Part shown: positions 16,234 to 36,077 of the stretch, one piece after another
Layout: every line of letters begins with the position of its first letter
How positions within the stretch are numbered: the stretch's first letter is position 1
Assembly: GCA_963711155.1 (NCBI GenBank)
Contig: CAVQDB010000005.1
Coordinates: forward strand, 899,298-963,297
Source of the DNA: an uncultured Armatimonadetes bacterium
Lineage (GTDB): Bacteria; Armatimonadota; UBA5829
Reading direction: 5' to 3'
DNA: 64,000 bases
Program-made: the position numbers and the translations under genes
The notes under the pieces: generated by a model
Seen by the model: the letters and a program-made list of their open reading frames with translations, nothing else
The model's database searches: none
Told to the model about the DNA's origin: nothing

Positions 16234-16282
16234 CTATTCCCTCGACGTGGTACCACCTTGATTCCCCCGCGCTGCTCGACGT

Positions 16283-16380
16283 ACTCCGCTAGCCCTGAGT
16301 AGCCGCATACTCCGTTAGCCCTGAGTAGCCGCATACTCCGTTAGCCCTGAGTAGCCGCATACTCCGCTAGCCCTGAGTAG
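16283..16380. repeat. 26-bp tandem repeat, ~3.7 copies (ACTCCGYTAGCCCTGAGTAGCCGCAT), derived from the REP-A arm
   Basis: Perfect or near-perfect head-to-tail copies at 16283, 16309, 16335 and 16361. The last copy runs into a full REP-A element (16361-16465). Confidence 0.95.
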
Positions 16381-16545
16381 CGAGGCACGAGCGTATCGAA
16401 GGGCGATGCCTGAAGCACACGCTTCGATACGGCCGCCAGACCCGGCCTACTCAGCACTTACGGTGTTGCTGTTCCAACGCCGACAAGCGCGAGGCTCAAA
16501 CAGCTATATCGGGCTTACCCGGCGGGTTCTACTCGGCCTCACCTC

Positions 16546-31676: not shown

Positions 31677-32639
31677 ATGCCGTCAGACGATCTCAAGAGC
31701 CGAATCGAGGCCCTCAACAAACGGCCGCTGCGCAACGTGCCCGGCGAAATGGACGGCCTGCGCCGCAAACTCGCCAAGCAGGCCGAAACAAAATCCCGCG
31801 CGCCCGTCGAGCCTGCTCCGTCCCCGAACGCATCTCCGGCGGCGTTCGAGCCGGTGGTCTATTCACGCAGCACTCCTCGGGCGTACTCGACCGTCAGCGA
31901 TCCCTTCGATGATGGAGAGGTCGTCGCGCTGGAGGAGGTCGTGAGCGGAGTTGCGTCGGCGGCGCCGTCGGGGCCGGATTACTATCACATCGAGTACGCG
32001 GCGGTGGATGTCGACGAGAGCGCGCTGGAAATGCACGCGTGTTTCCTGCCGCTGATCGGCCATCCCGAAGGGGCGGCGGTCGAGAAGGTCGCCGCGCTGT
32101 GCAACTCGAAGCGACTCGCGCCGGAAGACACGCTGTTCATGGACATCGAGACGACCGGACTCGGCAACACGCCCGTCTTTCTGATCGGAACGATGGAATC
32201 CGACGCGGACGGATTCGTGTTCAAGCAGTATTTCGCCCGGGATTACTCCGAGGAGATGAGCATACTGTCGGCGTTCTCCAAGCGGCTCGCGGACGCGCGG
32301 ATGCTGGTGACGTTCAACGGCAAGTCGTTCGACATGCCGTATCTGCGGAACCGTGCCGTGGCGACGGCGGTCAAGCTGTCCCACCCCAGGCATCACCTCG
32401 ACCTGCTGCACGAGGCGCGGCGGCACTACGGTCATTCGACGCCGAACCACAAGCTGCAGACCCTCGAGCAGCTCGTGTGCGGAAGGTGCCGCGAGGACGA
32501 TATCCCCGGCGCGCTGATACCGGCGGCGTATCACGAGTTCGTCCGCACCGGCAACGCGCGCAAGATCGGCCTGATACTTCAGCACAACCTCTACGACCTG
32601 CTGACCATGGCGGATCTGATGGCGCGGATGTGGGGGTAG
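31677..32639 (+). CDS. RNase H-like 3'-5' exonuclease, YprB/MrfB-like
   Basis: Intact ORF with 'LFMDIETTGL', 'LVTFNGKSFDMPYL', 'HLDLLH' and 'HNLYDLLTMADL' (DEDDh-like pattern). Lies directly upstream of a YprA-type helicase. Confidence 0.7.
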   Translation: MPSDDLKSRIEALNKRPLRNVPGEMDGLRRKLAKQAETKSRAPVEPAPSPNASPAAFEPVVYSRSTPRAYSTVSDPFDDGEVVALEEVVSGVASAAPSGPDYYHIEYAAVDVDESALEMHACFLPLIGHPEGAAVEKVAALCNSKRLAPEDTLFMDIETTGLGNTPVFLIGTMESDADGFVFKQYFARDYSEEMSILSAFSKRLADARMLVTFNGKSFDMPYLRNRAVATAVKLSHPRHHLDLLHEARRHYGHSTPNHKLQTLEQLVCGRCREDDIPGALIPAAYHEFVRTGNARKIGLILQHNLYDLLTMADLMARMWG

Positions 32640-32690: not shown

Positions 32691-35443
32691 ATGGGCTTTG
32701 AGGCGTTTCTCAATAAGCTGCGGGAGTCGCCGGTCTATCGGAACCAGATAGTCCACAGCCATACCGTCGAGGCGCGCGAAGCGCAGTACGCCGAGCCGGA
32801 GTCGCCGCTTGCGGAGGCGTGCTCACGCTATCTCGCCTCGATGGGCATCGAGAAGCTCTACTCGCATCAGGTCGAGGCCATCGACGCCGTGCGCGAAGGC
32901 AGGGACACGCTCGTTGTCACCGGCACCGCGAGCGGCAAGAGCTTGTGCTACCAGCTTCCCCTGCTGGAGATGCTCGAAACGCAGCCCTCCGCTAGCCCTG
33001 AGTGCGAAGCGTATCGAAGGGCGCGCGCGATTCTGCTTCATCCCACCAAGGCGCTCTCCCAGGACCAGTTTCAGGCACTGCAGCGGATGCTGGACGCGGC
33101 GGCTCACTCCGCTAGCCCTGAGTGCGAAGCGTATCGAAGGGCGCGCGCGATTCTGCTTCATCCCACCAAGGCGCTCTCCCAGGACCAGTTTCAGGCACTG
33201 CAGCGGATGCTGGACGCGGCGGCTCACTCCGCTAGCCCTGAGTGCGAAGCGTATCGAAGGGCGCGCGCGATTCTGCTTCATCCCACCAAGGCGCTCTCCC
33301 AGGACCAGTTTCAGGCACTGCAGCGGACGCTGGACGCGGCGGCTCACTCCGCTAGCCCTGAGTGCGAAGCGTATCGAAGGGCGGCCAACTCAGCGCTGGC
33401 GGGGTCCAGTTCCCCACAACTGAACTCATTACATTCGACGGCCCCAGGGCGCTCAGTCGTCGGCGTCTTCGACGGCGACACGCCCGCGAACATGCGCCGC
33501 AAGCTGCGCGATGAGGCGGCGATCATCCTCACAAACCCCGACATGCTCCACGCCGCGCTGCTGCCCAACCACACCCGCTGGGCCGAGTTCCTGCGCAACC
33601 TCAAGTACGTCATAGTCGATGAGATGCACACCTATTCGGGCTTGTTCGGCTCGAACGCGGCCAATCTCTTCCGGCGGTTCGATCGCGTCTGCCGGCACTA
33701 CGGCGCGAGGCCGCAGTTCATCTTCTGCTCGGCGACTGTCGGCAATCCGCTCGAGGTCGCGAAGAAGCTCACCGGCAGGAATCCCGTCCTGATCGACAAC
33801 GACGGCAGCCCGCGCGGCCGCAGGACCTACGTGTTCTGGAACCCGCCCAGGATTCGCGAGCGGCGGATTCGGTCGAGAAGAAGCGCGAACGTCGAGGCGC
33901 ACGAGCTGATGGCCGAGCTGCTCGTGGCCGGCGTTCCGACGATAACGTTCTCCAAGGCGAAGGTGACCGCGGAGCTGATCTATCGATACGTGGTCGAGAC
34001 GCTGGAGCGCAACGCGCCGCATCTTGCGAGCAAGGTGACGCCGTATCGCGGCGGCTATCTGCCCGAGGAGCGGCGCGAGATCGAGCGCAGGCTGTTCTCG
34101 GGCGAGCTGATGGGCGTCAGCACGACGCGCGCGCTGGAGCTTGGAATCGACGTCGGCGGGCTGGATGCGTCGATCATCGTCGGCTATCCCGGCACGCTCG
34201 CGGGTTTCTTCCAGCAGGCGGGCCGCGCGGGCCGGCGGGACCGGGAGTCGCTGGCGGTGCTGGTCGGCATCGACACGGCCGTCAACCAATACGTGATGAA
34301 GCACCCCGATTATGTCTTCGGCAAGCCCATCGAGCGGATCGTGCTCGATCCCGGACAATCCCTACGTGCTCTCCGGCCAGCTCCGATGCGCGGCATACGA
34401 GCTGCCGATCTCGGAGGACGAGGTCGACTTCGTTCGGCGAGTACGCGCGGCTCGTGCTCGATGTGCTCACCGAGCAGCACAAGCTCAACAAGGTCGGCGA
34501 CAAGTGGTATCACGCCTCGGAGGACATCCCCGCAGCACGAGGTCAGCCTGCGCGACTGACTGCGACGCTAACGTCGCGATCACCGACGTCGACACCGGCC
34601 GCGTGATCGGCGAGCTCAACAAATACGACGCGCAGCCGATCATCCACCCGGACGCCATCTACATGCACCAGGGCGAGACGTATCTCGTGCTCGAACTGGA
34701 CCTGGACCGCAACCTCTGCCTGGTCAAGCGCGTCGAGACGGACTACTACACCCAGCCGCTCGGCGGGACCGACGTGCACCACATCGACCAGCCGCTGCGC
34801 GAGCGCGATTTCGGCACGGCGAAGGCGTACTTCGGCGAGGTGACCGTCTACTTCAGCACCGCCGCTCTACGAGCGCATCCACTTCTACAGCCTCGACGCG
34901 ATCTCCCGGCACGAGGTCGAACCTGCCCACCTATCAGCTCGAAACGATGGCGTTCTGGATCACGCCGCGCGAGGAGATCGATGCGCGAGATGATCGAGGA
35001 GGGGCTGGACGTGCACAAGGCGCTGATGGGAATCGGCTACGCGACCCGCATGATCCTGCCGCTGTTCATCCAGTGCGAGACGCTCGATTTCTCGCATTCG
35101 TCCTGCACCGCCGATCAACGCGCCCTGGCATACGATGTTCATCTACGAGCGCTATCCGCACGGGCTCGGCTTCACCGAGCAGGCCTTCGAGATGCTGGGC
35201 GACCTCCTCCCGGCGGTCTACGACACGATCCTCAAGTGCGGCTGCCGCAACGGCTGCCCGTGCTGCGTGGGCAAGCCGCTGCGCGGATACACGACCTGGA
35301 ACATCGAGCGCGGCGAGGCGAACGTGCCCAGCAAGCGCGCGGCGCTGCGGCTGCTCAAGGACATCATCGGCGACGGAACCAAACTGCGCGCAAGCAACCG
35401 TCCAAGAGCATGGGCAAGACGACGCCGAGCGACAGACTGCTGA
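32691..35443 (+). CDS. DEAD/DEAH-box helicase with C-terminal DUF1998-type zinc module (YprA/MrfA-like); contains an in-frame tandem amplification and at least 6 frame breaks; 3' end uncertain
   Basis: Motif I 'TGTASGKSLCYQLP', Ia 'PTKALSQDQ' (present 3 times), II 'VIVDEMH', 'FCSATVGNP', 'VSTTRALELGIDVG' and 'QQAGRAGRR'. The C-terminal reads 'ERYPHGLGF...LKCGCRNGCPCCVGKP' (ORF 35135..35443). Pieces lie in ORFs 32691..34559, 34312..35724, 34947.. and 35135..35443. Confidence 0.8.
32987..33383 (+). repeat. 120-bp tandem repeat, ~3.3 copies, inside the helicase ORF (each unit = REP-A arm + helicase motif Ia segment)
   Basis: Unit starts at 32987, 33107, 33227 and 33347. Copies are identical except one T>C (M>T) in copy 3. 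Each unit encodes 'ASPECEAYRRARAILLHPTKALSQDQFQALQRMLDAAAHS'. Confidence 0.95.
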
Positions 35444-36077
35444 TCGAGCGTGGCATCCGGCGCAGGCTGGAGCGGATGGGCGACCCCGAGGTATTCCATC
35501 CCATCGACCCCAACCCGCAGGTCGGGTTCCCCGAGGTTGAGAAGCCCGCGGCATCGACCGACGCCGACATCGCGCGGCGGGCGTTCAAGCGCGTCATGCT
35601 CGAACTCGACTCAGCATCCAGCCGACGATCGAATGCTCGATGCGAAGCATCGATGGCACGACTGGACCGAGCCGCCGGAGCATCTGACGAAGCCCGAGGG
35701 CGCGTTCGCCGAGCGGGGTTCTGATGTGGACCGGCGGAGTGTTGGTCCGGAGCAGGCGCCGCCGGGTCAGAGCGTGACCGACGCCAGCCGTGGGGCGCGC
35801 GACTTCGACGCGGCTGGCGATCCTGATCTCGCGCACGAGGCAGCGCCGCGCAGCCGCCGCGTGACGTCGAAGGCGCTCAGAGCATTGATGAGGGGAAACG
35901 CGGCGGGAGGGCCGCCGTTGGCGACGGGAGGGCCGCCGTCGAGCGATCCGAAGCCTCAGGCGAAGCAGATCGAGCTTGGGGATTCGACGGCAGCGAAAGC
36001 CAGAAGGCTGAAAAAGCGCAAGTAACATCCTACGCCGCTCAGCCGCAGGAAGTGTATGGCGAAGGAAGTACCCGGCC

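Follow-up and report, generated by a model that had tools for sequence, protein, structure and literature searches.

A 64,000-nucleotide stretch of the genome assembly of an uncultured Armatimonadetes bacterium (contig CAVQDB010000005.1, positions 899,298 to 963,297; hereafter the window, whose own numbering is used unless a contig is named) carries a tandem array inside a gene for a superfamily 2 (SF2) helicase of the YprA/MrfA family. In this array a 37-bp member of a dispersed repeat family, which we call R, alternates with an 83-bp segment of helicase coding sequence, S. We consider that this is probably a real and very young R-mediated triplication, in frame, of a core unit of the helicase in a gene that is otherwise intact.

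Tandem Repeats Finder gave a period of 120 bp, 3.3 copies, 99% matches and no indels for positions 32987-33383 (score 787). Direct reading resolved these 397 bp into three R-S units followed by a closing R (Table 1). The four R copies are identical (CTCCGCTAGCCCTGAGTGCGAAGCGTATCGAAGGGCG), and the only difference between units is a T>C change at 33328 in unit 3, which replaces Met with Thr. The array lies in frame within the open reading frame (ORF) 32691..34559 and encodes the peptides SASPECEAYRRA and RAILLHPTKALSQDQFQALQRMLDAAAH three times over, then a final SASPECEAYRRA. Shuffled sequence would be expected to yield 0.02 occurrences of the 17-nt arm of R, and the window has eight. Both analyses agree with the original prediction, made from the letters of the window, which had described an in-frame 120-bp x 3.3 array with a single T>C difference; its statement that a dispersed repeat bounds the array also holds, as the four R copies belong to a family of about 125.

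The same prediction had named the gene as a YprA/MrfA-like helicase, which was confirmed by its Pfam domains and by a match to Bacillus subtilis YprA/MrfA (PDB 6znp). The SF2 core is recognized by DEAD (4.7e-35) and Helicase_C (7.2e-10), and a winged helix follows RecA2 (WHD_HRQ1, 1.1e-6 on the second frame piece). The zinc-binding MZB domain (DUF1998/MZB, four Cys) is found at 2.5e-12 in the frame piece 35054-35443, reading CGCRNGCPCC; as assembled it can be reached only across frameshifts, and it is intact in the orthologues P0003-P0009. The N-terminal 553 residues match 6znp with E=1.1e-109 (phmmer), and the nearest public protein, P0003 (84% identity), does so with E=4.6e-173. The helicase ends in ...GDSTAAKARRLKKRK, with the stop at 36025. 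Because LLHPTKALSQDQ aligns to MrfA residues 104-116, including the motif Ia residue P107, S is the part of RecA1 that comprises beta2, motif Ia and alpha2, in keeping with the earlier claim that the repeated segment holds motif Ia. This proline helps MrfA to hold the DNA backbone and is connected to motif Ic through R491 (PMC7797055).

Comparison with orthologues indicates that the array is young and lineage-specific, since neither the R peptide nor a second motif Ia was found in 10 orthologues from relatives or in about 120 proteins of a large protein collection. The closest orthologues (P0003, L009 and P0004, with 84%, 83% and 82% identity) have the same genes beside them as the window helicase and are single-copy, and a protein search returned nothing above 84% identity to the helicase. 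S aligns to a single copy in every orthologue compared and is thus native helicase sequence. The orthologue alignment that had been proposed as a check therefore revealed no ancient, conserved triplication. At the first junction P0003 reads CCG TCG GCG CGG GCG (Pro-Ser-Ala-Arg-Ala) and the window CCC TCC GC[T AGC ... GGG C]G CGC GCG, so that the first 6-7 bases of R copy 1 (CTCCGC) coincide with native Pro-Ser-Ala codons and, by this comparison, R copy 1 amounts to a net insertion of 30 bp.

The loop behind the array is enlarged as well. Motifs Ia and Ib lie 29 residues apart in most homologues (about 70 of 80), 33-53 apart in the closest clade (P0003 33, P0004 38, P0020 53) and 62 apart in the window helicase when the count starts at S copy 3. 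Directly behind R copy 4 come 47 bp that consist of a stretch resembling an inverted R 5' arm, followed by a stretch resembling the end of a 138-bp miniature inverted-repeat transposable element (MITE). The MITE-end match of 29 nt scored 31 (shuffle mean 14, standard deviation 2.3; 0 of 1000 shuffles as high), and the repeat-derived DNA behind the array also gave a 48-nt match to C5:1431469-1431517. The MITE-like element itself (e.g., C2:393615-393752) has about 38 copies and terminal inverted repeats AGTGAACGAGTTCATTTCTCCGGGAA ... TTCCCGGAGAACTGAACTCATT; its end-like stretch at window 33402-33430 is translated within the helicase loop. In P0004, from another species, the extra loop residues (L022, about 1515-1545) are encoded by a different short repeat with a hairpin, CCTGAGCCTGTCGAAGG, in antisense orientation, which has five occurrences in the window's genome; here another repeat would have entered the Ia to Ib site independently. 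As the loops of P0004 and of the window helicase were both enlarged by repeat DNA, the loops around the S unit are permissive landing sites in this clade.

When short direct repeats m give rise to a tandem duplication de novo, the product has n units and one additional m. The extra piece in the array is exactly one complete R, and from this anatomy we infer a prior state R-S-R in which the joints were made by misalignment of R with R. Members of R would first have inserted in frame in two surface loops flanking beta2, motif Ia and alpha2, giving R-S-R; because both insertions were in frame, the period would be a multiple of three and the frame would be kept. Both R sites read CTCCGC|G, which may reflect a target preference or microhomology. 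To judge from the layout, the identical direct R copies, 120 bp apart, would then have misaligned and R+S units would have been added to yield R-(S-R)3, by unequal sister exchange, by replication slippage or by template switching at the R hairpin. This fits the unequal recombination or slippage that had been suggested at the outset. Finally, RecA1 would use one copy of S, and the remaining two copies, some 80-90 residues, would form a loop between alpha1 and beta2 or between alpha2 and beta3.

AlphaFold2 was run on the N-terminal 553 residues; in the alignment supplied to it (92 sequences), the homologues were matched to copy 3. The model (mean pLDDT 82, pTM 0.80; these are predicted local distance difference test and template modelling scores) builds RecA1 with copy 3 at pLDDT 83-93 and shows residues 99-189 (R1-S1-R2-S2-R3) as a low-confidence excursion of four helices (pLDDT 60-77). 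Its closest structure is MrfA 6znp (Foldseek E=5.7e-39, TMq 0.68). A feasible fold for a three-copy RecA1, in which any one copy could supply beta2 and alpha2, is thus not excluded by the model. The view that three motif Ia segments are hard to reconcile with a normal fold was overstated, as a tandem beta-alpha copy can loop out, RecA1 is built in the model, and the loop is already enlarged in the closest relatives. Since the extra mass would adjoin the DNA groove, a reduced activity is plausible on the model, and helicase activity would probably be reduced or unchanged rather than new.

A pattern search of the genome found 125 copies of R (105 of them distinct), with lengths of 30-46 bp and the consensus CCGC-TAGCCCTGAGT-[3-40 nt, often a small hairpin]-GTATCGAAGGGC-GG. 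The outer stem GCCC/GGGC covaries, with the variants GCGC/GCGC, GTCC/GGAC, GCCG/CGGC and GCAC/GTGC. Changes in this stem comprise 12 compensated double changes, 5 wobbles and 12 breaks, 8 of which are terminal G-G and may reflect a shift in register. When R copies were folded singly as single strands, they were no more stable than shuffles (z = -0.9 to -1.5), so the structure is supported by covariation and not by folding energy. Rfam held no family for R or the array, giving only weak chance matches to a human long non-coding RNA model, and a literature search with the R sequence returned only unrelated primers. The conserved CUGAGUA / GUAUCGAA loop was also considered as a hammerhead-like or sarcin-ricin-like motif, a reading that was dropped; the core nucleotides do not fit a hammerhead. 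By exact pattern, R has 74 copies in this genome, 41 in G017 (8.2 Mb, another genus), 9 in G007 and none in six genomes of the same genus, one of them a single contig; this patchy distribution suggests lineage-specific bursts or horizontal spread.

R loci are mostly singletons or direct tandem arrays, with few +/- pairs. The genome has two Y1_Tnp loci resembling RAYT genes (transposase genes associated with repetitive extragenic palindromic, REP, sequences), at C3:1441075-1442564 and C5:2273400-2274650. No R lies beside either of them, their flanks being tandem arrays of another repeat, a cggggc...gccccg hairpin. R was therefore rejected as the REP of the genome's RAYT genes. The RAYT-like genes and this other repeat (cggggctcg-ttttcgccccgaa) are likely a REP/RAYT pair of their own, and the repeat is the one named REP-C in the original prediction, at window 37.2-41 kb.

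R had been described as normally intergenic, which did not hold. About 12 of 84 R loci (about 14%) are spanned by in-frame ORFs with high G+C at third codon positions on both sides, and at five loci besides the helicase Pfam domains were found on both sides of R (Table 1), with R copies in both orientations; residence of R within a coding frame is recurrent in this genome. One of the five is itself an array, by which the linker of a flavoprotein gains four 28-residue units. R copies do cluster: in two other ORFs, pairs of R stand 48-56 bp apart with different inserts. The IspD-IspF linker is too diverged in relatives for an empty-site reconstruction of R ends or of a target duplication.

Tandem arrays were counted as young at a period of at least 20 bp and an identity of at least 90%. 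There are 110 of them in this genome (5.6 Mb), covering 0.54% of it, and they include 14 of the 84 R loci where 0.52 would be expected, a 27-fold enrichment (P=2e-16). This agrees with the suggestion that the repeat is prone to expansion. The supporting example given for it, an amplified arm in the valS leader, stood in part: there is a 26-bp array at that place, and of the 37-bp element it repeats no more than the 5' half (17 nt), taken from a related R copy. R arrays are also present in an independent genome of 97% completeness, which argues that they are biological. Besides the helicase array, two R arrays lie within ORFs, and their periods, 84 and 27 bp, are likewise divisible by three. 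When R arrays with a period of at least 50 bp are compared, the period is divisible by three only in the two in-ORF cases (84 and 120 bp) and in none of six intergenic ones, which is the pattern that selection for an open frame would leave. An R-containing 127-bp array on C2, which holds an identical R, was considered as a relative of S beyond R and rejected, since 38 of 500 shuffles scored as well.

One feature that the original prediction had missed bears on how the array is to be read. Frameshift-aware alignments to L009 and P0003 showed 9-10 frameshifts in the 3' third of the helicase gene, every one of them an extra base, with no deletions and no in-frame stops. None of the ten lies in the first 60% of the gene (the first 1.65 kb), and indels are absent from the array and from the surrounding 1.6 kb. 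Between the frameshifts the protein is as conserved as elsewhere in the helicase: compared with the P0003 gene, the ratio of nonsynonymous to synonymous substitution rates (dN/dS) is 0.097 in the frameshifted part and 0.104 and 0.053 in two intact parts. Two other YprA-like loci in the genome (C5:599008-600339 and C5:633485-634673) have in-frame stops and split matches, and no stops were found in the YprA matches of 40 relatives. The genome comprises 5 contigs and 5.64 Mb, yet its completeness is 60.6%, compared with 91-100% in relatives; from the contiguity and the type of error the assembly would be a long-read one. The uniform +1 changes, the low dN/dS, the equally broken paralogues and the stop-free relatives all indicate that the 3' frameshifts are most likely errors of a noisy long-read assembly and not gene decay. 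Automated annotation pipelines would nevertheless be led by some ten such frameshifts to call the gene a pseudogene.

An assembly this visibly error-prone, with its low completeness and its cluster of one-base insertions within 1.1 kb of the helicase gene, could also have produced the array itself, by expansion of one or two real S units in the long-read consensus step, and S was found in no second assembly. We think this unlikely. The errors seen are single bases and not 120-bp blocks and do not touch the array; a substitution in one unit speaks against copy-paste by the consensus; 397 bp is far below the length of a long read; and young arrays are numerous in this genome, while R arrays recur in the independent one. 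Nonetheless, because the assembly is error-prone, fine details including the copy number of the array need read support.

Similarly unlikely is that both the triplication and the frameshifts are real, in a decaying pseudogene released from selection, perhaps because two YprA paralogues remain. Ten frame disruptions, a triplicated core motif that would be odd to keep, and the presence of the paralogous loci would all suit such decay. It is opposed by the absence of deletions and in-frame stops, the confinement of the disruptions to the last 40% of the gene, and a dN/dS in the disrupted part as low as in the intact part. That the paralogues are broken to the same degree when relatives are stop-free points to the assembly, and the array keeps a period divisible by three in the manner of the two other in-ORF R arrays and not of the intergenic ones.

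It is less probable still, and we give it little weight, that an ordinary tandem duplication by microhomology carried R along as a mere passenger within the unit. Most young arrays (96 of 110) are without R, and several that contain R were joined outside it (for example 107 bp x 2.0, 127 bp x 3.7 and 308 bp x 2.8); duplication in this genome thus has other routes besides R. Against the role of passenger, both ends of the helicase array coincide to the base with the ends of a complete R, an outcome that a passenger would not give, and R loci are strongly enriched in arrays. A selected device that tunes the helicase as units come and go, which the in-frame period, near-identical copies permitting frequent gain or loss, and repeats adjoining the DNA-binding groove (PMC7797055) might recommend, is highly improbable, since nothing similar occurs in any homologue and the R family also makes arrays that serve no evident purpose, in leaders, in linkers and between genes.

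Several points weigh against the R-mediated triplication that we favour. The copy number rests on one error-prone assembly; exact-pattern scans of metagenome and genome contigs found the window's S sequence in no other assembly, and among the assemblies scanned there was no R-S-R intermediate or independent allele. Two R insertions 83 bp apart in equal orientation and frame are a priori unlikely, although R copies do cluster at other loci, and the overlap of R with native sequence at the first junction (CTCCGC) leaves the exact order of events ambiguous. Most other R-containing arrays do not have R at both ends, and R is not always the joint of a tandem duplication in this genome. The choice of copy 3 by AlphaFold2 was steered by the alignment, so that the model speaks to feasibility only.

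Whether R does more than provide homology can be put forward only tentatively. It is a rather doubtful proposition that R is an active element which settles in coding-frame loops and provokes amplification of the adjoining DNA, the likely route being fork stalling and template switching at the R hairpin; no recognisable transposase partner was seen here. If R were active, it would be a generator of new protein repeats and of enlarged RNA leaders in these Armatimonadota-like genomes, and the helicase would show a unit of a catalytic core caught in the act of multiplying while its gene stays in use.

Table 1. Features of the helicase locus and R insertions flanked by Pfam domains elsewhere in the genome (window numbering unless a contig is given).
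Feature	Position	Strand	Remarks
valS-leader array	16282..16381	+	26 bp x 3.8, R 5' half-arm; ends in a complete R of another subtype
mrfB/yprB-like 3'-5' exonuclease gene	31677..32639	+	upstream of helicase; Pfam RNase_H_2 E=1.6e-36
mrfA/yprA-family SF2 helicase gene	32691..36025	+	one open frame to ~34345, beyond only by frame hopping
R copy 1	32987..33023	+	37 bp; net 30-bp insertion relative to orthologues, after native CCC TCC GC (Pro-Ser-Ala)
S copy 1	33024..33106	+	encodes RAILLHPTKALSQDQFQALQRMLDAAAH: beta-strand, motif Ia, helix
R copy 2	33107..33143	+	
S copy 2	33144..33226	+	same letters as S copy 1
R copy 3	33227..33263	+	
S copy 3	33264..33346	+	T>C at 33328; copy set into RecA1 fold by MAFFT and AlphaFold2
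R copy 4	33347..33383	+	closes array
Repeat-derived stretch	33384..33430	+	encodes ANSALAGSSSPQLNSL, part of motif Ia to Ib loop
9-10 single-base (+1) frameshifts	34350..35433	+	WH/OB/MZB-coding part of helicase gene; frameshift-aware alignments to L009, P0003
Single R in frame	C4:170997-171033		inside FGGY_N of FGGY kinase
Single R in frame	C3:1235835-1235871		IspD-IspF linker
Single R in frame	C3:417279-417319		antisense orientation, just after Radical_SAM domain
Single R in frame	C5:1883663-1883703		CbiM-PDGLE linker
R array in frame	C3:1517203-1517489		84 bp x 4, between Fer4_20 and NAD_binding_8, Oxidored_FMN flavoprotein

The gene downstream of the helicase encodes a prepilin-type N_methyl protein, and the order exonuclease, helicase, prepilin-type gene is kept on two orthologous contigs (those of P0003 and P0004). 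Given the RNase_H_2 exonuclease upstream and this conserved three-gene order, the helicase and exonuclease are predicted to form a repair pair of the MrfAB type. No partner genes of DISARM, Dpd or Druantia were found beside the helicase, and the downstream neighbor is not a defence gene. Within the YprA family as bioRxiv 10.1101/2025.09.15.676423 draws it, the pair falls in the repair branch.

The reference system is the MrfA/YprA helicase with the MrfB/YprB exonuclease of B. subtilis (PDB 6znp; PMC7797055, PMC11194089). The window helicase has the same RecA1, RecA2, WH and MZB arrangement, with a strong match to 6znp in sequence and fold and an adjacent exonuclease of the RNase_H_2/DEDDh type. 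In contrast to B. subtilis, the exonuclease comes first in the window, and orthologues of the window helicase are 930-960 aa long with a longer C-terminal tail, compared with 749 aa for MrfA. The chief difference is that beta2/motif Ia/alpha2 is present three times, separated by the 12-residue R peptide, and that the Ia-Ib loop has 62 residues instead of 29.

Should the array prove real, it would represent an early stage in the birth of a protein repeat, in which a beta-alpha unit of a RecA-like core has multiplied with almost no divergence and the mechanism can be read directly from the DNA. In-frame, near-identical duplication with a period divisible by three is what intragenic tandem repeats also display. 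Whereas those are usually found in surface or low-complexity regions, the S unit holds a conserved catalytic-core motif of an SF2 helicase.

Palindromic repeats in frame within genes have a precedent in the Rickettsia palindromic elements (RPEs), which Ogata et al. reportedly found in protein-coding genes in 2000. Like RPEs, R is a dispersed palindromic repeat tolerated in frame, mostly in loops or linkers, where it adds a short peptide; we found it so placed, with flanking domain matches, in the helicase, IspDF, an FGGY kinase, a radical SAM protein, CbiM-PDGLE and a flavoprotein. At 30-46 bp it falls well short of the RPEs (about 100-150 bp), its hosts are free-living Armatimonadota-like bacteria with large genomes, and it is strongly tied to local tandem amplification, which to our knowledge is not a described property of RPEs. 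Passages in PMC1779305 and PMC10969869 mention RPEs in coding genes.

As for the joints, REP-mediated duplication joints in enterobacteria are said to have been reported by Shyamala et al. in 1990. REPs have been seen at amplification junctions in E. coli, where they are not preferred joints (PMC1428787). R resembles REPs and REPINs in being a short imperfect palindrome with many copies that can act as the short homology at a tandem-duplication joint. It differs in that the known REP cases are kb-scale events between intergenic REPs, in contrast to a 120-bp unit inside a catalytic domain, and R does not occur mainly as the inverted doublets of REPINs. R is thus REP-like in form and is no member of a REP/RAYT system, because the repeats on either side of the RAYT-like genes here belong to another family.

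Both ingredients, in-frame palindromic repeats and short repeats as duplication joints, are already known (PMC1428787; RPE literature). What is unusual is their combination at a 120-bp scale inside a catalytic core, with a repeat family strongly linked to tandem arrays. The R family thereby joins two behaviors usually described apart, residence in frame within genes and promotion of local tandem duplication, and makes testable how far a helicase core tolerates internal duplication and whether hairpin repeats raise the local rate of duplication.

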